A stretch of 64,000 nucleotides of DNA, from assembly GCA_934438135.1 (NCBI GenBank), contig CAKSBP010000017.1, forward strand, positions 1,647 to 65,646, written 5' to 3'. The stretch is from an uncultured Clostridium sp. (lineage in GTDB: Bacteria > Bacillota > Clostridia > Lachnospirales > Lachnospiraceae). The notes beneath the pieces were generated by a model. The model was not told the DNA's origin and searched no databases. It saw nothing but the letters and a program-made list of their open reading frames with translations. Positions 31,737 to 44,596 of the stretch are shown in pieces. The translations under genes were made by a program, and so were the position numbers. How positions within the stretch are numbered: the first letter of the stretch is position 1; the number at the start of each line of letters is the position of its first letter.

Positions 31737-32053
31737 AAAAACCTCCTTCAGTCTTTGAAATTAGAATTTGTTTATTTGTGGAAAATTATTCAAAATAGTA
31801 AATGAATCGTTAGAATGGTAAATAATACTAATGATTATATTGTAACAGGTATTTAAAAAATTGAAAATAGTTTTTTCAGGAGTAGAACATAAACTACCTT
31901 TGTTCTGGCTTTTTTGCAAAAAGTATGTATAATAGGTAGTGAATAAAATATATGAAATCGTGTGAAAGAAAATTTAATTATGAAAGGATGCCCATAGGTT
32001 CTTACACACAAAAAGGGCAGTATTGCAGTTTTGCAACATTGGGAAAGAGGAAT

Positions 32054-33103
32054 ATGAAAACTTCAGATTTTAACTTTGACCTGCCGGAAGAACTGATTGC
32101 ACAGGATCCACTTGAGGATCGTTCCAGTTCCAGGCTTTTGGTATTAAATAAAGAGACAGGTGTGATTACACACAAAATTTTTAAGGACATTAAGGATTAT
32201 CTTCGTCCAGGAGACTGTCTTGTCCTGAATAACACAAAAGTAATTCCAGCCAGACTAATCGGAGAAAAAGAAGGAACCGGAGCGAAAATCGAACTTCTGT
32301 TATTAAAGAGAATGGAAGGTGATGTCTGGGAAACTCTTGTAAAACCAGGTAAGAAAGCAAAGCCAGGAACCAGAATTTCTTTTGGAAATGGTTTGTTAAT
32401 TGGTGAGATTACAGAAATAATTGAAGATGGTAATCGTCATGTAAAATTTTATTATGAAGGAATCTTTGAAGAAATTTTAGACCAGTTAGGTCAGATGCCG
32501 CTGCCACCTTATATTACACATCAGTTAAAGGATAAGAACCGTTATCAGACGGTATATGCGAAATATGAGGGTTCTGCCGCTGCACCTACTGCAGGTCTTC
32601 ATTTTACCAAGGAACTGTTACATGAATTGGAAGAGATGGGGGTTATTCTCTGTGGGGTAACTCTTCATGTTGGGCTTGGAACCTTCCGTCCGGTAAAAGT
32701 AGATGACGTGACCGAACATCACATGCATACGGAAGCGTATCAGGTGCTTCCAGAAGCAGCGAAGAAAATCAATGATGCTAAGAGAGAAGGACGTCGTGTT
32801 ATCTGTGTTGGTACTACAAGCTGCCGTACCGTAGAATCTGCAGCAGATGAAAATGGAATTGTTCAGCCGGGAAGCGGTGATACAGATATTTTCATTTATC
32901 CAGGTTATAAATTTAAAGTACTTGACTGTCTGATTACAAATTTCCATCTTCCGGAATCCACACTGGTTATGCTGGTTTCTGCACTTGCAGGGAAAGATCA
33001 TATTATGAATGCATATGCCGAAGCAGTGAAGGAAAGATACAGATTCTTCTCTTTTGGGGATGCCATGTTTATTACGGATGATGATTTGATAAAAGAAGAT
33101 TAG
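32054..33103 (+). CDS. queA: tRNA preQ1(34) S-adenosylmethionine ribosyltransferase-isomerase
   Basis: [31 protein letters not shown] is the canonical QueA N-terminus. Start at the ATG at 32054 behind gggaaagagg. Confidence 0.9.
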
Positions 33104-33221: not shown

Positions 33222-34955
33222 TTACTTTGAAATAGTAAAAAGGGAGTAGAAGTAACCTTTTTTATTCATAAGTTCATCAAAAGAACCTTTTTCTTTTATG
33301 TATCCATTTTTTAGAGTAATAATTTCATCTGCCTGTCGAAGTATGGTTTCATCCAAATCGTGTAAAACGAATACTCTGGTTATATCTTTAAGATTCATAA
33401 TGGAGGACATTACATGGAACGAAGTATTTGCATCCAATGCTGCTGTAATTTCATCTGCAAGAAGTACATTTGTATGTCGGATAAGACTTCTTGCAACTGC
33501 GATTCTCTGCCTTTCTCCTCCTGAGAGAGAACTGCCGTTTTCACCGCATTTATAGGTTAGTCCCTTTTGATTTACAAGTTCAGTAAGACCGGACTGTTTT
33601 ACTGCTTTGTCTATTTCATCGTTCGAGAACTCTTGATACATTGTGATGTTATCTAAAATGGAGCTGTCAAAGATAACTGTTTCTTGTTGGATAAAAGCCA
33701 ATGCCTTATATATCTCATCATTACTGACATCTCTAAGCTCTGTATCATCATAGAAGATTTCTCCACTATATGGACTCATCATTTGCATGATAAGTTTTAA
33801 AAGCGTACTTTTTCCACTTCCGGAGGCACCCACGATAATGTAACATTTTCCCGCCATTATATCTAAGTTTATATTCTTTAGTGATAATTCTGTTTTTGCA
33901 TTTGAAAGGTCATCTGCATAACGGTAGGAAACATTTCTAAATCGAATCGAATGCTGAAGTTTGGAAAGTTTTTTAGAGGTTTCGTGTTTTTCCTCAGTAT
34001 CCAATACTTCTCCAAGTTTATCTACAAGGGATAACGATGCCTTTGCATCTGTCAGCATTGGTGGAAGATTAGTAACTGGATCAATGAGATAATTAATAAG
34101 CTGGGAGAAAGCGATAATCGTTCCTGATGTTATCTTATCATCATAAAAAGAGAACAGTACACATGCAAATAGTACGCTAAACTGTGTGATGTATCCTGAA
34201 ATGGCAGCATGGTAATTTACTTTCTCAATGATTTTTTCTCGATTTCTCTGACTTTTTCTGACCTCTTCGCATTGATTCCTGTAAAGGAGATTAAAGGCAT
34301 TTTCCGCTTTAAAGCTTTTGATAGTAGAAAAGCCTCCAAATATATCTTTTATGACTGCCATATATTCGGAATTTTTTTCAGATAGAGACATCTCTGCATC
34401 GGATAGTTTTCTTCCGGATATAAGTGCAGCAATAAGTGGTATAAATGAAATGATTACTGCAATCAGTGTAAGCCAAATACTATAACCAGCCATCATTACA
34501 AGAGCACCAAGGCAGCATATAAATATCTGGGTGATAATTGGAAGCTGATCAAGATATTTTTCTTTTATAGAAGAAATATCGTTTACTAGTGCTGATGTGT
34601 AATTGGATGAATTTTTCCTATAAAATCCTTGGATATCCTTCTTTAAAAGTTTGGTAAAAGCATAACTTCTGTATTGTGCGACTGCTTTTGTGCTGAATGC
34701 AGTTCTAAAATAATAGGTACATATTCCAGAAAATAATTCCATAAATATAACTGCAAGTCCCATGAAAAGAAGATGACTCCAATTACTTGTCCCCGTTCCT
34801 GCTACTAAGTCGATTACCTGCTGCATAAGATAGGGGACACATAAAATTGCAATAGAAAGAACAGTGGTACCTAGAATGGCCATTGCCAGGTTGAATCTGT
34901 TATTTTCATAGAATTTACTGCGCAGTGCTTTCGTGTTTGACGATTGATTCTTCAT
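33222..34955 (-). CDS. ABC exporter (fused TMD-NBD), putative RiPP transporter
   Basis: Six-TM ABC_membrane domain, then Walker A GASGSGKST, signature LSGGERQR and Walker B LLADE. There is no N-terminal C39 peptidase domain. Confidence 0.85.
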   Translation of the reverse strand: MKNQSSNTKALRSKFYENNRFNLAMAILGTTVLSIAILCVPYLMQQVIDLVAGTGTSNWSHLLFMGLAVIFMELFSGICTYYFRTAFSTKAVAQYRSYAFTKLLKKDIQGFYRKNSSNYTSALVNDISSIKEKYLDQLPIITQIFICCLGALVMMAGYSIWLTLIAVIISFIPLIAALISGRKLSDAEMSLSEKNSEYMAVIKDIFGGFSTIKSFKAENAFNLLYRNQCEEVRKSQRNREKIIEKVNYHAAISGYITQFSVLFACVLFSFYDDKITSGTIIAFSQLINYLIDPVTNLPPMLTDAKASLSLVDKLGEVLDTEEKHETSKKLSKLQHSIRFRNVSYRYADDLSNAKTELSLKNINLDIMAGKCYIIVGASGSGKSTLLKLIMQMMSPYSGEIFYDDTELRDVSNDEIYKALAFIQQETVIFDSSILDNITMYQEFSNDEIDKAVKQSGLTELVNQKGLTYKCGENGSSLSGGERQRIAVARSLIRHTNVLLADEITAALDANTSFHVMSSIMNLKDITRVFVLHDLDETILRQADEIITLKNGYIKEKGSFDELMNKKGYFYSLFTISK

Positions 34956-35010
34956 GATTCGTTTCCGTATCCTTTCTTTTATAGTTCTTGTCTTGGAAAA
35001 TGGAATGTTT

Positions 35011-36378
35011 CTAAAATTTCTGTATTTCAGGATAAAATATTTGATTTAAGAAATCTTCAAAACTTTTCTGTTCATTTTCACATTGTTTGTCAAAGTTTAT
35101 TTTAGCGGATTGTTCACATCCCCCACCGCAATATCCACCTATTTTGCATATGCTGCATTTTTTGTTATCTCTATATGTTCTGTTTGGTTTTTTATAATTT
35201 TTTAGATTGTCAGATGAGAATTTAAATTCTGAGAATTCTTTTCTACCTACGGTATATGTACATCTAAAAGTGTCTAAATCAGGATCGATGTAAAAAACAT
35301 TTTCATATGGTGCAGCAGCCCAACAGTAGTTTCCTGAACCTTTTAACTCTTGTTGGCGATAATTAACTCCTATTTTCTTACACAATTCATAGGGAGCCCG
35401 TATAAACGAAGCATATACTCCATCAGGTATCATACTAAATTCCCCTAATTTTTTCAATATATCAGTTTCACTAAGTATATCTTTATAGTTAGTTTCATAA
35501 AATCTATCATCAACTCGTCCTATAACAAAGGAGAACTTTTCATTACTTAAGAACTCTTCTTGTTCATAAAAATTAATCATGCTACCAATTTGATTTATAT
35601 TATGTTTATCAATATTAGCTGCTATGCTTACTCTTACACCATTATCTATAAGCAGCTTTACGTTTTGTAATATTGAGTTTGCATGTGCAGTCGGTATATT
35701 TTTATTTCTTTCGCATCTTGTTGTCTCGTTATTAAAGAGGCTGTCTATAGTTGTAAATATACTCATATTTAACCCGCGGTATATAATAAGCTCCTTTAGA
35801 TAGTATCCTAAAAAAGAACCATTGGTTGTTATGCCTACACTTATTCTGTTTTCTACGCAAAAGTCAAATATTTTTATAATATCATCGTGATTTTCTGGTA
35901 ATAATGGCTCACCACCAAACAATTCTATAACTATATTTTCATCGTTATGGTTATTTTTATATTCTATAATGGTAGATAGAATATAATCTAAATTTTCTGT
36001 TGTAATTTTATTTTTATTTAGTTTATCATTATGCTGTTGATAGCAATAAGTGCATTTTAAATTGCATGCATAGCTCAATGCAATAACAAAACTAGTAGAT
36101 TTATTTTTGGTATCAACTATTTTATTCGAATAAATATCATATTCACTAGTTATCGGTTTATATTCTAGGACTTCTGCTACAGTTTTTGGGTATTTTCCAA
36201 TGCCATTCCAATCTATTGTATCAAGTAAAATACATCTATTGGTGTATGAATTTATGATGCATACTTTCTTTCCTAGATGTTTTATGATTAAGTGATCTAT
36301 AGATGGTACAAGTATTTCAGATTTATCTTGTATTTCCATTCTTTTTAATTTACCATTTGAAATCTCTTCAATGAACAT
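35011..36378 (-). CDS. Radical SAM/SPASM peptide maturase with an N-terminal (RRE-position) extension
   Basis: CNLKCTYC (C105/C109/C112, nt 36043-36066), GGEPLL, and a C-terminal 7-Cys pattern C-x20-C ... CSICKIGGYCGGGC ... C. About 95 aa precede the cluster motif. Confidence 0.85.
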   Translation of the reverse strand: MFIEEISNGKLKRMEIQDKSEILVPSIDHLIIKHLGKKVCIINSYTNRCILLDTIDWNGIGKYPKTVAEVLEYKPITSEYDIYSNKIVDTKNKSTSFVIALSYACNLKCTYCYQQHNDKLNKNKITTENLDYILSTIIEYKNNHNDENIVIELFGGEPLLPENHDDIIKIFDFCVENRISVGITTNGSFLGYYLKELIIYRGLNMSIFTTIDSLFNNETTRCERNKNIPTAHANSILQNVKLLIDNGVRVSIAANIDKHNINQIGSMINFYEQEEFLSNEKFSFVIGRVDDRFYETNYKDILSETDILKKLGEFSMIPDGVYASFIRAPYELCKKIGVNYRQQELKGSGNYCWAAAPYENVFYIDPDLDTFRCTYTVGRKEFSEFKFSSDNLKNYKKPNRTYRDNKKCSICKIGGYCGGGCEQSAKINFDKQCENEQKSFEDFLNQIFYPEIQKF

Positions 36379-36479
36379 TATTTCCTGTATGATTAGTAAG
36401 ACTCAATAAATCATACGTCTCCTTTCTTTTTAAGGTGGTTAAATTTTTATTAATCTCTAGATTTTTAATATTTTTGAAT

Positions 36480-36512
36480 GAGGAGGTGCAGGAAAACATC
36501 CTACACCCCCTC
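36480..36512 (-). promoter_or_regulatory. Strand-specific hairpin between precursor and maturase genes
   Basis: The minus-strand RNA gagggggugua gg/ccugcaccuccuc forms 13 bp including two G-U pairs, which would be A-C mismatches on the plus strand. The loop is 7 nt and no U tract follows. Confidence 0.5.
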
Positions 36513-36535
36513 ACTCAGAAAAAGGTTTTATACAA

Positions 36536-36667
36536 TTATCTTACTGTAGAATATCTACGATGTCCTACAGATGCTGTGCAAACGTTTGCAAGTTTATCAA
36601 TTGCTTCCATTTTTTCAATTTCTTCTTTTGTTAGAGTAACGCTTTTTAATGCTACCATATCTTTCAT
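36536..36667 (-). CDS. Candidate RiPP precursor peptide (43 aa; not in the ORF track)
   Basis: MKDMVALKSVTLTKEEIEKMEAIDKLANVCTASVGHRRYSTVR. RBS ggaaaggaga precedes it. An alternative start is the second ATG at 36658. It sits directly upstream of, and co-directional with, the rSAM/SPASM and ABC genes. Confidence 0.65.
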   Translation of the reverse strand: MKDMVALKSVTLTKEEIEKMEAIDKLANVCTASVGHRRYSTVR

Positions 36668-36812
36668 TCTCCTTTCCTTGGATGCCTTAAGTATAGCATC
36701 GCAAATTTATACTATGATTACATATTAAATGCTAATACTAAGTCGTCACAATGTCAATATTTTTCTTCTATATTATTCATAAAAATCCATAATATGACAT
36801 ATATAAATGAGA

Positions 36813-36841: not shown

Positions 36842-36935
36842 ACCAAAGAGAATGTGTTTTGCAGGCAGAACTTATTACAAAGAAAATCAAAGAACAGAAA
36901 TATAAGGACTGTTCCAATCTTGTGGAGGTGTGAAA

Positions 36936-37838
36936 ATGATTTATACAGTCACATTAAATCCATCACTGGATTATGCTGTGGGCGTGGATGGATTTTTGTT
37001 AGGAGCGACAAATCGGACGAAAAGTGAGCAGATACTGCCAGGGGGAAAAGGAATTAATGTTTCTATTATGCTGAAAAATTTAGGAATAGAAAGTACAGTA
37101 CTTGGCTTTCTTGCTGGATTTACTGGAGATGAAATTGAAAGGAAAGTAAAGGAAGCAGGATGTAAAACAGATTTTATCCGGATGGAAGAAGGTATGTCGA
37201 GAATCAATATCAAACTGAAATCTGATGTGGAGACGGAAGTAAACGGAATGGGGCCGGTAATCAGTGAGGCAGCGTTAAATCAGCTGTTTGAAAAACTGGA
37301 TCAGCTGAAACGGGATGATGTGCTGGTTCTGGCAGGAAGTATTCCAGCATCCATGCCATCGATCGTCTATCAGGAGATTATGGACAGGCTTTCGAATAAA
37401 GGAGTAACGTTCGTTGTAGATGCGACGAAAGACCTGCTGGTAAATGTATTAGAAAGACAGCCATTTCTGATTAAGCCCAATCATCATGAATTAGGTGAGA
37501 TTTTTGGAGTGGAGTTAAAAACCAAAGAAGAAGTGAAACAATATGCCAGAAAGCTGATGGAAATGGGAGCCAGAAATGTATTGATTTCCATGGCTGGCGA
37601 CGGGGCAGTATTCTTAGGAGAGGACGGAAGTGTGCTGGAAAGTCCGGCGCCAAAAGGAAAGGTGATAAATTCCGTGGGATCGGGAGACTCTATGGTAGCA
37701 GGATTTCTTGCCGGATATTTCAGTACAAATGACTATGAACAAGCATTTAAGATGGGAATTTCAGCAGGAAGTGCAAGTGCATTTTCTAAAGAACTTGCAA
37801 CGAAGGAAGAAGTTCTTGCTATATTAAATACACTTTAG
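36936..37838 (+). CDS. fruK: 1-phosphofructokinase (PfkB family)
   Basis: MIYTVTLNPSLDY N-terminus, the GGKGINV motif and a C-terminal GSGDSMVAGF ATP-binding motif. The ATG at 36936 is 7 nt after GGAGG. Confidence 0.8.
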   Translation: MIYTVTLNPSLDYAVGVDGFLLGATNRTKSEQILPGGKGINVSIMLKNLGIESTVLGFLAGFTGDEIERKVKEAGCKTDFIRMEEGMSRINIKLKSDVETEVNGMGPVISEAALNQLFEKLDQLKRDDVLVLAGSIPASMPSIVYQEIMDRLSNKGVTFVVDATKDLLVNVLERQPFLIKPNHHELGEIFGVELKTKEEVKQYARKLMEMGARNVLISMAGDGAVFLGEDGSVLESPAPKGKVINSVGSGDSMVAGFLAGYFSTNDYEQAFKMGISAGSASAFSKELATKEEVLAILNTL

Positions 37839-37854
37839 GACGAGGCCAGAGGTT

Positions 37855-38043
37855 TTGGTGGTCAAAGATGAACAGGGAATCCATGCAAGATCAGCAGGAT
37901 TAATTAAAATTGCTAAAGATGGCAAGAGAATTATGGGAGTGATGAGACTTGGTGTGAAGGCTGATGGAGAAGAGGAAGCGAATGCCATAGATGATAGAGC
38001 AGGTGATAAAGGAGAATTTATAGGTCGATTTGTCGATAATTGA
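37855..38043 (+). pseudogene. Decayed HPr (ptsH-like) remnant
   Basis: The translation keeps GIHARSAGL (His15 loop) and RIMGVMRLGV (Ser46 region, with Ser replaced by Arg). It lacks about two internal blocks of a normal ~88-aa HPr and has no ATG start or RBS. Confidence 0.5.
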
Positions 38044-38057
38044 ACTATTGAATGCTT

Positions 38058-38096
38058 AAAAAGCTAGCTTTACAGATACTTGTAAAACTAGCTTTT
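38058..38096. terminator. Bidirectional terminator
   Basis: aaaaagctagctttac pairs with gtaaaactagctttt (about 15 bp, one mismatch) between convergent genes. Confidence 0.7.
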
Positions 38097-38131
38097 AGTA
38101 TGTACATGTGTAGGCTTGTTGTTATGTAAAA

Positions 38132-38536
38132 TTAGGATACACGTACTTGAATTTTTGCACCGAAGCTACTCAGATTGTAGAATTTAATACGGTATTTATG
38201 ATGCTCTAAATCTGTGAAGTTGTAGGAATCCTTTGAAGAACCTTTAATTGTATAGGAATCAACAACGCAGTGGTCAGTATTATCGTATAGCTTAATTAGA
38301 ATATCTGCATTGTTATAATTATTTACCTGAACAAAAATTTCGTAACCACTTTTATATTTACATGGCTTATAAAGGCTTGAACTCTTTGTCCATCCATCGC
38401 CAGAGATGGTTGTTGTAAATTTGTCCAAACTTACATCATCAAGATCTACTACTGAAGATGCACTTACAGCTGTAGAACATAAACTTGTAAGACAGAATAG
38501 TATAGTTAGCATAGTTACCATTAATTTCTTTTTCAT
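38132..38536 (-). CDS. Small secreted protein of unknown function
   Basis: Signal peptide MKKKLMVTMLTILFCLTSLCSTAVSA followed by an ~105-aa beta-rich, Tyr/Asn-rich domain. RBS aaggagga precedes it. The gene is AT-rich. Confidence 0.6.
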   Translation of the reverse strand: MKKKLMVTMLTILFCLTSLCSTAVSASSVVDLDDVSLDKFTTTISGDGWTKSSSLYKPCKYKSGYEIFVQVNNYNNADILIKLYDNTDHCVVDSYTIKGSSKDSYNFTDLEHHKYRIKFYNLSSFGAKIQVRVS

Positions 38537-38620
38537 TATAATATCCTCCTTTTTTTTACATGGATAATCATACCATTAATTGGAGATGATGTAAAGGGCA
38601 ACTTAAAAAAATTTATATTA

Positions 38621-38670
38621 AACAAAACCCAAAAGATTCGAAACATCTAATTAATGCCAAATCTTTTGGG
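38621..38670 (-). terminator. aroA terminator
   Basis: cccaaaagatt (38628-38638) pairs with aatcttttggg (38660-38670), followed on the minus strand by uuuuguu. Confidence 0.75.
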
Positions 38671-38696
38671 CTTTTATAAGCATATTTTTTGTCTGT

Positions 38697-39977
38697 CTAT
38701 TTTACGCAAATCCTCTCCAAATCCCGATAAAATTCTGGATAAGAAATATTCACACACTCGCTTCCAAGGATAGTGGTTTCACCGTCTGCCTGCAAAGCGG
38801 CGATGGCAAAGGACATGGCGATGCGGTGATCTAGATTGGTTTCGATGTCAGCCCCGTGGAGAGCATTGCCGCCGTTAATAATCATACCATCATCGGTAGC
38901 GGTAACATCGGCACCAATTTTCTTTAAGTTGTTTACAACAACATCAATACGGTTGGATTCTTTTACTTTCAGTTCCTGGGCATCTTTGATAACCGTTATT
39001 CCATCTGCATAAGCAGCAAGGACAGCAATAACAGGTAATTCATCAATTAAAGTTGGTATCAGTTCACCTCCGATAGTACAGGAGTGAAGTTCGCTGGAAC
39101 GAATCAGAATATCCGCAGATGGTTCACCGTCTGTTTCATTGACATTCAGAAGTTCCATGGCGCCTCCCATCATTTTTACGACACGAAGAATACCGCCACG
39201 GGTTTTATTAATTCCAACATTTTTAATTAAAAGTTCAGAACCAGGAACAATTAATGCCGCACAGATAAAGTAAGCAGCAGAAGAAATGTCACCAGGTACC
39301 AGCACTTTCCTTCCGGTCAGTTTAGGTTCTGGGGTAACAGTAGCAGTAGTACCCGAGGATATAACATGTCCGCCGAAGAAATTTAACATAATTTCTGTGT
39401 GATTTCGGGATACATAAGGTTCAGTAACCGAAGTTATATCGTCTGCATAGAGTCCGGCTAAAAGAATGCAGGATTTTACCTGGGCCGAGGCAACTGGTGA
39501 CAAGTACGAAATGGCTTTCAGCGGGCTTCCTATAATATGTAAAGGAGCACAGCCATTTCCGTGGAGGCTGTCAATGTGAGCACCCATTTTCTTTAGAGGT
39601 TCTATGATACGTTTCATAGGACGTTTCTGAATGGATTCATCGCCATTTAGTGTGCTTTCAAAACTCTGTGCAGCAAGAATACCAGACATTAATCTGGTGG
39701 TAGTTCCGCTGTTTCCAACGTCTAGAATGCCGTCTGGTCTTTTCAGACCATGCAGGCCATTACCTGTTATGTGTACATTTGTACCATTTATCTGAATATC
39801 GGTTCCCATAGCACGAAAGCATGCAATGGTGGAGAGGCAGTCGGCTCCAGTTAAAAAATTTTCAATTTCCGTGGTGCCATTTGCCAGAGAACCAAGCATG
39901 ACTGCCCGGTGGGAGATGGATTTGTCTCCAGGAACACTTAGTTCCCCCTTTAACTGTCTGACTTTCTTAAAAATCAT
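38697..39977 (-). CDS. aroA: 3-phosphoshikimate 1-carboxyvinyltransferase (EPSP synthase)
   Basis: PGDKSISHRA and VGNSGTTTRL motifs. Confidence 0.9.
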   Translation of the reverse strand: MIFKKVRQLKGELSVPGDKSISHRAVMLGSLANGTTEIENFLTGADCLSTIACFRAMGTDIQINGTNVHITGNGLHGLKRPDGILDVGNSGTTTRLMSGILAAQSFESTLNGDESIQKRPMKRIIEPLKKMGAHIDSLHGNGCAPLHIIGSPLKAISYLSPVASAQVKSCILLAGLYADDITSVTEPYVSRNHTEIMLNFFGGHVISSGTTATVTPEPKLTGRKVLVPGDISSAAYFICAALIVPGSELLIKNVGINKTRGGILRVVKMMGGAMELLNVNETDGEPSADILIRSSELHSCTIGGELIPTLIDELPVIAVLAAYADGITVIKDAQELKVKESNRIDVVVNNLKKIGADVTATDDGMIINGGNALHGADIETNLDHRIAMSFAIAALQADGETTILGSECVNISYPEFYRDLERICVK

Positions 39978-42499: not shown

Positions 42500-44596
42500 A
42501 TGGAGGTGCTTATTATCGTATCGTTTAAAAGCAGAAACATTCGTAATATTGTAATTCTGGGACATGGAAGCAGTGGAAAGACTACCCTTACTGAGGCATG
42601 TGCCTATGTAACAGGCGTAGTAAGCCGGCTTGGAAAAACAGAGGACGGAAATACACTCAGTGATTTTGATAAGGAAGAAATACGAAGGGGATTTTCCATA
42701 AACATGTCACTGGTTCCGGTTATTCAGGATGAAGTAAAGCTGAATCTTTTGGATACTCCTGGTTATTTTGATTTTGTGGGAGAAACCGTGGAAGCGCTGG
42801 AGGCAGCTGATGCAGCAGTAATTGTTATTTCTGGAAAAAGGGGTGTGGAAGCAGGCACATTAAAAGCATGGGAATACTGCGAGAAAAAGCAGATTCCAAG
42901 AATTTTTTTTGTGACGGATTTAGACGATGGGAATGCAGACTTTGAAGCAGTAGTGGAAAAGTTAACAGAATATTATGGAGAAAAGGTAATTCCATTTCAA
43001 GTGCCTCTTCGAGAGGAGGATGCCTTTTGGGGATATGTGGAACTGATAAGTATGCAGGGACGAAAGTTTCAGAAAAATCAAGAGGAAGTGGATTGTGAAA
43101 TTCCAGAGAAGCTAAAAGAGATGGCAGAGACTTATCGATTAAAGATTTTAGAAAACGTTGCGGAAAGCAATGAGGAACTGTTGGAAAAATATTTTGATGG
43201 AGTAGCATTTTCTAAAGAGGAAATGAGTACGGCAATAAAAGAAAGTATCAGTAAGCTGGATTTGGTTCCAGTTTTCCTTGGAGCGGGGCTTAAGGCACAG
43301 GGAATTACAGAATTATTAAAGGCCGCTGTCGAATATTTCCCATCACCTGAAGGAAAAGTTCATATGGCGGTTAATAGCAAGGAACAGGAAGAGATGGAAG
43401 TGATTTGTAGAGACGATGCCCCAGTTTCTGTACAGGTATTTAAAACTATTGCTGATCCATTTATCGGAAAGTATTCGCTGTTTCGTGTTATGTCGGGAAT
43501 TTTACGGCCAGATGTAGTACTTTATAATCGGAATACAGAAAAAGAGGAGCGGGTGAATCGTTTTTTTATTCTATCAGGAAAAGAACAGCAGGAAGTAAAC
43601 TGCCTGTTTGCAGGAGATATCGGTGCCTTTCAGAAATTAGCTGCAACTGCAACTTTTGATACGTTATCCGTAAAAGAATTTCCTGTTTTATATCCACGTC
43701 CAGAACTCCCGGTTCCTTATACCTATATTCGTTACAAAGCAGAGAAAAAAGGGGAGGATGAGAAAATTTCCCAGGCGTTATCTAAACTTCTGGATGAAGA
43801 CTTGACTCTGAAAACGAAGCAGGATGCTATGAATCATCAATCGCTTCTATATGGAATGGGAGATCTGCACATTGAAACTGCTTTGTCAAAGCTTCTTAAT
43901 CGATACAAAGTAGAAATCGCAGCACTGGAGCCAAAAGTTCCTTATATGGAAACAATTACTGGTTTGGCAAAGGTACAGGGAAAATACAAGAAACAGTCTG
44001 GAGGACATGGGCAGTATGGGGATGTACATATGGAATTTACGGCGACGGGGGATTATGCTGTACCCTATGTATTTGAAGAGAAAATTTTTGGAGGAGCTGT
44101 GCCGAAAAATTATTTTCCAGCAGTAGAAAAAGGAATTGCAGAAAGTGTGAAAAGCGGACTTTTGGCAGGATTTCCAGTGGTTGGAGTCAAGGCAGTGTTA
44201 GTGGATGGTTCCTATCATCCAGTAGATTCTTCCGAACTGGCATTTAAAATGGCAGCGATTATGGCATTTAAACAGGCATTTATAGAAGCAAAGCCGGTTT
44301 TGCTGGAACCGATTGTAGAAATGCATACGATAATTCCGAATCGGTATAGCAGTGATATTTTGGGGGATTTTAACAAACGTCGCGGAAGAGTACTTGGCAT
44401 GAATCCGATTTCCAAGGAGAAAAAGGAGATAATCTGCGAGCTTCCATTAGAAGAAACATTTGGATACAGCACAACGCTTCGTTCTATGACGGCGGGACTT
44501 GGAGAATACCGTTATGACGTAGTGCGCTACGAACAGACATCTCCTTTTATACAGGAAAAGATTATTAAGAAATACAAAGAAATGCAGGAAAAATAA
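42500..44596 (+). CDS. Elongation factor G paralog (translational GTPase)
   Basis: G1 motif GHGSSGKTTL, DTPGYFDF, and EF-G domains II-V by collinearity. The start codon is uncertain because the ggaggtg RBS overlaps the ATG at 42500. Confidence 0.75.
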   Translation: MEVLIIVSFKSRNIRNIVILGHGSSGKTTLTEACAYVTGVVSRLGKTEDGNTLSDFDKEEIRRGFSINMSLVPVIQDEVKLNLLDTPGYFDFVGETVEALEAADAAVIVISGKRGVEAGTLKAWEYCEKKQIPRIFFVTDLDDGNADFEAVVEKLTEYYGEKVIPFQVPLREEDAFWGYVELISMQGRKFQKNQEEVDCEIPEKLKEMAETYRLKILENVAESNEELLEKYFDGVAFSKEEMSTAIKESISKLDLVPVFLGAGLKAQGITELLKAAVEYFPSPEGKVHMAVNSKEQEEMEVICRDDAPVSVQVFKTIADPFIGKYSLFRVMSGILRPDVVLYNRNTEKEERVNRFFILSGKEQQEVNCLFAGDIGAFQKLAATATFDTLSVKEFPVLYPRPELPVPYTYIRYKAEKKGEDEKISQALSKLLDEDLTLKTKQDAMNHQSLLYGMGDLHIETALSKLLNRYKVEIAALEPKVPYMETITGLAKVQGKYKKQSGGHGQYGDVHMEFTATGDYAVPYVFEEKIFGGAVPKNYFPAVEKGIAESVKSGLLAGFPVVGVKAVLVDGSYHPVDSSELAFKMAAIMAFKQAFIEAKPVLLEPIVEMHTIIPNRYSSDILGDFNKRRGRVLGMNPISKEKKEIICELPLEETFGYSTTLRSMTAGLGEYRYDVVRYEQTSPFIQEKIIKKYKEMQEK

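Follow-up and report, generated by a model that had tools for sequence, protein, structure and literature searches.

A compact group of three genes in a 64,000-nt stretch of DNA from an uncultured Clostridium sp. (contig CAKSBP010000017.1; the whole stretch is referred to as the window, and all coordinates are positions in it) raises the question of what such a cassette would produce and whether its product belongs to a new class of peptides. The first-pass annotation, made from the DNA letters without database searches, had read the group as the precursor, the radical S-adenosylmethionine (SAM) maturase and the exporter of a peptide synthesized on the ribosome and modified post-translationally (RiPP), and had implied novelty, the precursor being assigned to no recognised family. 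The first part was borne out: three intact open reading frames (ORFs) lie in the same direction on the minus strand, encoding a small peptide, a 455-aa radical SAM/SPASM enzyme and a 577-aa ATP-binding cassette (ABC) exporter, and they almost certainly form a radical SAM RiPP operon. The implied novelty was not upheld, since the best NCBIfam model for the enzyme was that of the ryptide maturases (NF040899, E = 3e-97) and the peptide has an RrrA-like leader and an R-R-Y core. The cassette is a variant within the known ryptide family and not a new class.

The enzyme, an RrrB-like radical SAM/SPASM peptide maturase (35011..36378, minus strand), was matched by the Pfam models Radical_SAM and Fer4_12 and by NF040899. 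Its radical SAM [4Fe-4S] motif, C105-x3-C109-x2-C112 within YACNLKCTYC (36043..36066, minus strand), was invariant in the alignment (A1), and the protein also carries FGGEPLL. The seven cysteines for two auxiliary Fe-S clusters lie in the SPASM region (35080..35325, minus strand), which was assigned by alignment and by structural similarity to CteB, SuiB and the anaerobic sulfatase-maturating enzyme (anSME), and follow the pattern C352-x20-C373 ... C408-x2-C411-x5-C417-x3-C421 ... C433. Among 21 homologues, C352, C373, C408 and C411 were invariant and C417, C421 and C433 were conserved in at least 90%, in keeping with the annotated 455-aa enzyme with CNLKCTYC, GGEPLL and a seven-cysteine SPASM C terminus. 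The Pfam SPASM model itself gave no match to the enzyme at E <= 0.1.

The model NF040899, which describes radical SAM/SPASM ryptide class RiPP maturases, covered residues 3-453 of the enzyme with 326 bits, and the next-best NCBIfam models followed at a distance (CefB 75 bits, PapB 60, YhhB 43 and FxsB 37). This score misses the trusted cut-off of 600 bits; in the calibration of the model, RrrB of S. suis reached 958 bits and that of S. pseudintermedius 946 bits. Five other relatives that were tested obtained 330-388 bits, with no second family above about 90 bits. By these scores the enzyme would be placed outside the strict NF040899 equivalog and clearly inside the RrrB lineage, and its identity to S. 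suis RrrB was 36-41%, depending on the aligned span.

A structural model of the enzyme obtained with AlphaFold (AF2) had a mean predicted local distance difference test (pLDDT) score of 83.6. When it was searched with Foldseek, CteB (E = 2e-13) and SuiB (E = 5e-12) were found on top, followed by anSME with good core superpositions (template modelling score, TM, 0.56-0.58), and a profile search of the PDB preferred CteB (E = 1e-15) to anSME (E = 1e-3); a single-sequence PDB search with the enzyme was uninformative. The good fit to the anSME core might be taken to mean that the cassette is not a RiPP system at all, with the SPASM enzyme acting, like anSME, in the maturation of a protein or a cofactor and with a spurious small ORF, and a grouping with sulfatase maturases had been named beforehand as a result that would speak against a RiPP cassette. 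Such a reading can hardly be maintained and is effectively refuted: the profile search separates the two structures in favor of CteB, the sulfatase model TIGR03942 was not among the top 25 families of the enzyme, no sulfatase gene or cofactor pathway was found nearby, and 19 loci share the small ORF, both its sequence and its position being conserved (profile E = 6e-14, described below). The enzyme thus groups with the peptide-modifying SPASM enzymes CteB and SuiB and not with anSME.

About 100 residues stand ahead of the radical SAM cluster motif, and the N-terminal domain that they contain is conserved across the family; in the AF2 model, residues 1-71 were confidently folded into seven strands and one helix, a mostly beta arrangement. 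The annotation had put this stretch at about 95 residues and proposed it as a RiPP recognition element (RRE). The existence and conservation of the stretch were confirmed; its identity as an RRE was not, with no PqqD Pfam match in the enzyme at E <= 0.1, nothing at E < 0.5 in a Foldseek search with the domain only, and a weak partial match of 32 columns to the lasso RRE TbiB1 (probability 0.8, E = 0.8). A role of the domain in substrate binding is probable. Among the homologues, many proteins of 427-675 aa (P0065-P0083, P0089, P0109-P0110 and P0118) have HTH_3/HTH_31 or LysR (HTH_1 with LysR_substrate) domains fused to the radical SAM part; their coverage of the query is only about 64-92%, and they could be either real regulator-enzyme fusions or merged gene calls.

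The ryptide-like precursor gene is the 43-codon ORF at 36536..36667 (minus strand), described in the annotation as having its own ribosome binding site. The ORF is present at that place, and an AGGAG box precedes its first ATG by 1 nt and its second (36658) by 10 nt; this spacing fits the second ATG, so that the 40-aa product MVALKSVTLTKEEIEKMEAIDKLANVCTASVGHRRYSTVR is likelier than the 43-aa form. In agreement, the gene callers used on public assemblies picked the 40-aa form (MVALK...). When 11 precursors from other loci were combined into a profile, with that of the window left out, and this was compared with the 1878 six-frame segments of the window, the ORF was matched with E = 6e-14 (48 bits), and the next-best segment reached E = 0.17. 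A small ORF was also found upstream of the enzyme in all of the 18 other homologous loci with readable sequence 5' of that gene (18/18), and the proposed check of whether a conserved small ORF precedes homologous maturases was therefore answered positively at every locus that could be inspected. Judged by this conservation, the small ORF is a real gene, far beyond chance.

The leader of the window peptide contains V-T-L-T-K-E-E-I-E-K-M-E-A-I-D and its C terminus reads GHRRYSTVR, with the four tail residues STVR after the Tyr; the R-R-Y core codons are located at 36551..36559 (minus strand) and correspond to R37 R38 Y39 in the 43-aa numbering, or R34 R35 Y36 in the 40-aa numbering. In an alignment of 12 precursors that included S. 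suis RrrA (MQIEFTSEELMQMKTIDELMSIVQDTPGEIVPAGPFITRRRY), the window peptide and RrrA had the leader and the R-R-Y core in common, the window contributing VTLTKEEIEKMEAIDKL and S. suis EFTSEELMQMKTIDEL. The leader motif and the end of S. suis RrrA aligned with the window as MQIEFTSEELMQMKTIDEL...ITRRRY, and the motif shared by the two peptides is h-x-[LF]-[TS]-x-E-E-h-x-x-M-x-x-I-D. Similarly, C. bornimense, the named species with the closest homologue of the enzyme (78% identity), has a same-strand ORF just upstream of its enzyme gene that ends in ...LTKKEMEKMKKID...CSRRYVTTL. The model NF041055 (ryptide_RrrA) matched the window peptide in leader residues only (14 bits, E = 0.03) and below its cut-off of 45 bits; it gave 95 bits for S. 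suis RrrA and no match for three other non-streptococcal precursors. Across 19 precursors, that of the window included, which adjoin enzymes 33-80% identical to the window enzyme, the Arg two positions before the Tyr, Arg(i-2), and the Tyr itself were the sole invariant residues, and Arg(i-1) was present in 18 of the 19.

The window precursor holds one cysteine, Cys30 (NVCTAS), and a thioether RiPP of the sactipeptide or ranthipeptide type, with Cys30 linked to another residue, would be in line with the sactisynthase CteB as the closest solved structure and with the weak matches to CefB (75 bits) and PapB (60 bits). This is nevertheless highly improbable: the cysteine is missing from seven related precursors (L006, L007, L009, L010, L011, L095 and L096), and the thioether maturase models score four- to five-fold under the ryptide model.

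The other loci were gathered by a metagenome scan with the homologue alignment and by exact look-ups of homologues. The family is small: in a search of 1.84 billion proteins, about 50 cluster representatives (50% identity) scored higher than about 220 bits, and E < 1e-30 was reached by 295. In a neighbor-joining tree of 17 enzymes the lineage was split into two clades, separating the precursors with a tail that are linked to an ABC gene from those with a terminal Tyr that are linked to a major facilitator superfamily (MFS) gene. Clade A comprises the Streptococcus and Staphylococcus enzymes together with several gut lineages; Tyr is the last residue of its precursors (ITRRRY, TNRRY, SHRRY, FGRRY, DARRY and GHRLY), an MFS gene comes after the enzyme, and an Rgg or RNPP regulator was found upstream in 4/7 loci. 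Clade B (12 loci) is formed by the window, C. bornimense and ten metagenomic loci. In its precursors R-R-Y is followed by 4-6 residues with the consensus [SAGV][VTLI][VTIA]x, and position i-3 is occupied by His, Asn, Ser or Tyr; downstream of the enzyme, 12/12 loci carry an ABC exporter, of which the contig of L009 holds only the start, and an RNPP regulator was found in L006 only. From this tree, the window cassette would belong to a divergent sister clade of the characterised ryptide systems.

Two of the gathered groups deserve a separate description. In one clade B locus with 55% identity (L096, 3256-7866), the tailed precursor (...GNRRYSVIELA) and the enzyme come first, then an MFS and lastly an ABC gene, with a phage-type integrase nearby; this locus may be an intermediate between the MFS and ABC architectures. 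More than 60 contigs (L017-L084), many of them with a human gut metagenome label, represent a very widespread human-gut relative with 40% identity and the precursor MYTVTFSNEELEEMKANDAVVIVSCDDDNGHRLY, whose R-L-Y is the sole case in which the middle Arg is missing; a divergent RNPP-type regulator is encoded upstream, and an MFS gene followed by a second radical SAM gene (362 aa) lies downstream. No homologue was found in the plasmid search, and the sole match labelled as phage was an unannotated 6-kb faecal contig of this human-gut clade (phage-collection record MT837704.1).

The characterised reference for these systems is the RrrA/RrrB pair of S. suis, the RRR subfamily of the streptococcal radical SAM RiPPs (RaS-RiPPs; Caruso et al., 2019, as described in PMC9389541 and PMC7670169). 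RrrB is reported to couple an Arg side chain, through a carbon-carbon bond, to the C-terminal Tyr of RrrA at its ortho carbon (PMC9389541; PMC7670169; PMC11851443), and it rejects substrates with Arg-to-Lys or Tyr-to-Phe exchanges (PMC7670169). The window shares with it a full-length homologous enzyme, the R-R-Y core, the order precursor-enzyme-transporter and the lack of a protease in the cluster. By contrast, the S. suis genes are ordered rgg, rrrA, rrrB and MFS, with an Rgg regulator and its short hydrophobic peptide (SHP), whereas the window has an ABC exporter and no Rgg/SHP regulator; the precursors of S. suis and S. pseudintermedius end in ITRRRY with a terminal Tyr, whereas the HRRY of the window has an internal Tyr and a tail of four residues; and the precursor-enzyme spacer measures 157 nt and contains a hairpin in the window, compared with 15-17 nt and no hairpin in S. 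suis and S. pseudintermedius. The hosts differ as well, probably an uncultured gut Clostridia lineage here and Streptococcus or Staphylococcus for the characterised type. Taken in the broad sense, the cassette belongs to the ryptides, with NF040899 as the best model by a wide margin, an RrrA-homologous leader and an R-x-Y core; it lacks the terminal RRRY, the adjacent Rgg/SHP and the downstream MFS gene of the streptococcal type. In the literature searched, outside of which most subscription papers fell, the radical SAM RiPP atlas among them, ryptides were streptococcal or mentioned in passing. No description of the ABC-linked tailed clade was found there, and an earlier mention in the subscription papers is possible.

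Given the ryptide homology of both the enzyme and the peptide and the invariance of Arg(i-2) and Tyr, the cassette is likely a ryptide-type RiPP operon whose enzyme makes an Arg-Tyr carbon-carbon crosslink with a loss of 2 Da. In the pathway that we propose, a promoter near 36757 probably drives a transcript encoding the 40-aa precursor, and a stem-loop behind this gene probably keeps the precursor mRNA in excess over the read-through for the enzyme and the pump. The conserved leader would be recognised by the RrrB-like enzyme, and after reductive cleavage of SAM the 5'-deoxyadenosyl radical would take a side-chain hydrogen from the invariant Arg of H-R-R-Y. The Arg carbon would then be joined to the ortho carbon (C3) of the Tyr, followed by re-aromatisation and passage of an electron to an auxiliary SPASM cluster. 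By homology with S. suis RrrB, the product would be a small cyclophane macrocycle with a net change of -2 Da. The ABC half-transporter would export the peptide, and the leader, possibly together with the four-residue tail, would be removed by an unlinked or extracellular protease.

Several observations weigh against this proposal. Both NCBIfam scores are under their cut-offs (326/600 bits for the enzyme and 14/45 bits for the peptide), and SPASM maturases as distant from each other as the window enzyme and RrrB (about 36-41% identity) can differ in chemistry. In RrrA the Tyr comes last and has three Arg before it, while the Tyr of the window is internal and its i-3 residue is His; if RrrB links Arg(i-3), the clade of the window must make a different ring. 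The Arg carbon used by RrrB is itself in dispute, being given as delta (PMC7670169; PMC11851443) or as gamma in a 16-membered ring (PMC9389541). Moreover, the N-terminal domain was not recognisable as an RRE by Pfam or by domain-only Foldseek, no protease or regulator adjoins the cassette, and one strain of the same species (L086) retains no more of the enzyme gene than an internal 92-nt relic (90% identity) joined at short repeated words.

Some of these points could also indicate that the same enzyme lineage yields a different product, that is, a new scaffold in which another Arg position or carbon, a C-O link, or the His or the tail takes part. The variation at i-3 in clade B (His, Asn, Ser or Tyr) next to the invariant Arg(i-2) and Tyr, the internal Tyr with its conserved small or beta-branched tail ([SAGV][VTLI][VTIA]), an NF040899 score of about one third of that of true RrrB and the inconsistent ring descriptions in the literature (PMC9389541 vs PMC7670169) would all be compatible with this. 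Nevertheless, it appears unlikely, as the two invariant residue types are precisely those that RrrB cannot do without (PMC7670169), and the MFS-linked relatives ending in NRRY, HRRY, GRRY, ARRY and HRLY have no Arg(i-3) either; this makes R-x-Y the apparent substrate throughout the family, in its streptococcal members as well. Somewhat less doubtful, though still rather unlikely, is a narrower variant, in which the ABC-linked tailed clade makes a macrocycle unlike the streptococcal ring, for instance an internal three-residue cyclophane between Arg(i-2) and Tyr with the tail kept, and in which the pump might serve self-protection. If this were true, a new RiPP scaffold would come from uncultured gut Clostridia, and self-protection would explain the survival of the pump described below.

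Other enzyme families offer parallels to the Arg-Tyr crosslink that we favor. The streptide enzymes StrB/SuiB (Lys-Trp; PDB 5V1Q, 5V1S and 5V1T) are likewise radical SAM/SPASM proteins with an N-terminal domain, encoded in a compact three-gene operon, and are among the top structural matches; they form a macrocycle through a carbon-carbon bond from a side chain to an aromatic residue of a short precursor, and the residues that they crosslink differ from the Arg-Tyr pair proposed here. The window enzyme is only 15% identical to SuiB (Foldseek), and the N terminus of SuiB is a winged helix-turn-helix RRE, in contrast to the mostly beta domain without a significant structural match found here. 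CteB, the sactisynthase of C. thermocellum (PDB 5WGG and 5WHY), is the closest solved structure by profile and by fold and has the same layout of N-terminal domain, barrel and SPASM region, but it makes Cys-Thr thioethers on the Cys-rich SCIFF peptide, whereas the precursors of this family have no conserved Cys. The triceptide enzymes (XyeB, YhhB and FxsB) and PqqE (Glu-Tyr) are also radical SAM/SPASM proteins that join an aliphatic carbon to an aromatic ring over a span of three residues, and an R-x-Y crosslink would give a small cyclophane comparable to the triceptides. In the triceptide motif (Omega1-X2-X3) the aromatic residue leads, whereas here the Arg does, and the YhhB and FxsB models (43 and 37 bits) scored far under their cut-offs.

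The exporter (33222..34955, minus strand, 577 aa) is a half-transporter with a transmembrane domain and a nucleotide-binding domain (Pfam ABC_membrane 24-294 and ABC_tran 359-505). No Pfam match to Peptidase_C39 was found in it, and its transmembrane domain starts at residue 24, so that it is not a peptidase-containing ABC transporter and was correctly annotated as an exporter without a C39 domain. It shares 75% identity with its counterpart, the ABC exporter encoded downstream of the enzyme in C. bornimense, the enzymes of the two loci being 78% identical. No leader peptidase, regulator or dedicated immunity gene adjoins the cassette, as had been noted before: a tblastn search with S. suis Rgg and two RNPP regulators detected no Rgg/RNPP homologue in the 64 kb at E <= 1, and no MFS homologue was found in the window. 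It is the lack of both a C39 domain and a linked protease that led us to postulate an unlinked one for leader removal. As for the role of the product, a secreted signal or a narrow-spectrum antagonist seems most plausible.

The cassette lies between queA (31952-33103, plus strand, Pfam Queuosine_synth) and the PfkB-family kinase gene fruK (36930-37838, plus strand), and its three co-directional genes were found at the coordinates annotated. The gaps are short, 157 nt between precursor and enzyme and 55 nt between enzyme and exporter, and no terminator-like site was found within the cassette; together with the conserved position of the hairpin and the co-variation of the exporter with the enzyme, this argues for a single operon. 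A candidate sigma-70-like promoter, TTGACA-17 nt-TAGCAT (36729..36757, minus strand), with 10/12 consensus matches, is located about 70 nt 5' of the precursor start. The number of promoter-like sites in the region equals the expectation from shuffled sequence, so that its position is what commends this candidate.

A G+C-rich stem-loop of 19 bp (36475..36517, minus strand) lies about 20 nt past the stop codon of the precursor and has no U-tract; the fold of the intergenic region reached -49.2 kcal/mol (z = -6.2). A strong hairpin occurs at the same position, in unrelated sequences, in 16/16 loci outside Streptococcus and Staphylococcus, the window included. It is absent from S. suis and S. pseudintermedius, where the precursor-enzyme gap is only 15-17 nt. 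The stem-loop may act as a partial attenuator of the transcript or as an mRNA stabiliser favoring the precursor message, an arrangement common in bacteriocin operons. A further small ORF between precursor and enzyme (36368-36514, minus strand, ATG at 36499) is probably not a gene: it overlaps the hairpin and is not conserved, being cut by a 1-nt indel in near-identical strains and having no counterpart in C. bornimense, although some public assemblies call it as a gene of 43 aa or 31 aa.

The cassette is poorer in guanine and cytosine (GC) than its surroundings, with values of 0.29 (radical SAM gene), 0.33 (precursor gene) and 0.35 (ABC gene), compared with 0.40-0.44 for the flanking genes; the C. 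bornimense locus has 0.27. It was therefore probably acquired horizontally, the donor being Clostridium-like and low in GC. A look for direct or inverted repeats in the flanks that would hint at an insertion site found none. In C. bornimense (L001; 4389-4973 and 9563-10192) the cassette has an HTH_17 excisionase-like gene on one side and, on the other, an ORF resembling a serine recombinase by eye, and in another locus (L012, 1370-2815) a MobA/VirD2 relaxase is encoded upstream; mobile elements seem to be its vehicle.

Among the matches listed, most contigs with an identical QueA carry the full cassette at 99.5-100% identity; L085 and L089 match the window completely (100%), and L087 and L088 reach 99.5-99.95% identity in the region. 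The strain L086, whose left flank is 99.4% identical, lacks window positions 35014-36753 (the corresponding place on its contig is 9058-9151), so that the precursor gene and most of the radical SAM gene are gone. The ABC gene is intact (98% identity), and the deletion junction falls at the promoter-like site. L086 is a case of secondary loss. The transporter alone was likewise kept in S. thermophilus, in which the ryptide operon is reduced to the transporter in 264/265 genomes and no ryptide was detected in the single complete strain (PMC12445099). Both cases could suggest that the operon of the window is decaying or silent, with only the ABC transporter under selection and the peptide no longer made. 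This is quite improbable, since the ORFs, the promoter-like site and the hairpin of the window are all intact, its catalytic cysteines and motifs are complete, and L085, L087, L088 and L089 preserve the region almost or entirely unchanged. Because the pump is kept where the biosynthetic genes have been lost, it may also protect the cell.

Additionally, L086 lacks two ORFs on the right of the cassette, one encoding a 62-aa HPr fragment (37855-38043) and one encoding a 134-aa protein with a signal peptide and no Pfam match (38132-38536). This segment (37839-38697) is variable between strains, and fruK of L086 is only 89% identical, in comparison with 99.4% for the left flank; the missing ORFs and the divergence of fruK suggest recombination at this spot.

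As this cassette and its relatives show, the RrrB lineage is broader than its curated models, extending to gut Clostridia and to a clade that is very common in the human gut, and the conserved substrate of the family is R-x-Y rather than RRRY. A second ryptide architecture is also outlined, in which the core is tailed, the exporter is of the ABC type and a hairpin comes after the precursor gene. In the literature searched, knowledge of ryptide chemistry derives from one heterologously expressed enzyme, with no native product isolated and no function assigned (PMC13361665; PMC12445099). These loci would offer new substrates for asking how the enzyme picks its Arg and new hosts in which a mature product and its function might be found, and the finding that only the transporter was retained, both in L086 and in S. 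thermophilus, suggests that the pump serves some purpose by itself.

Finally, some minor observations were made in the surrounding sequence. Rfam models detected a distant tRNA only and no riboswitch. The queA ORF encodes 383 aa in the window, compared with 349 aa in the cluster representative, and its Pfam match begins at residue 37; its true start is therefore probably downstream of 31952. The elongation factor G (EF-G) encoded at 42500-44596 is at most 59% identical to that of any named organism, with best named matches mostly in Lachnospiraceae, which reflects either a poorly sampled host lineage or a divergent EF-G paralogue.

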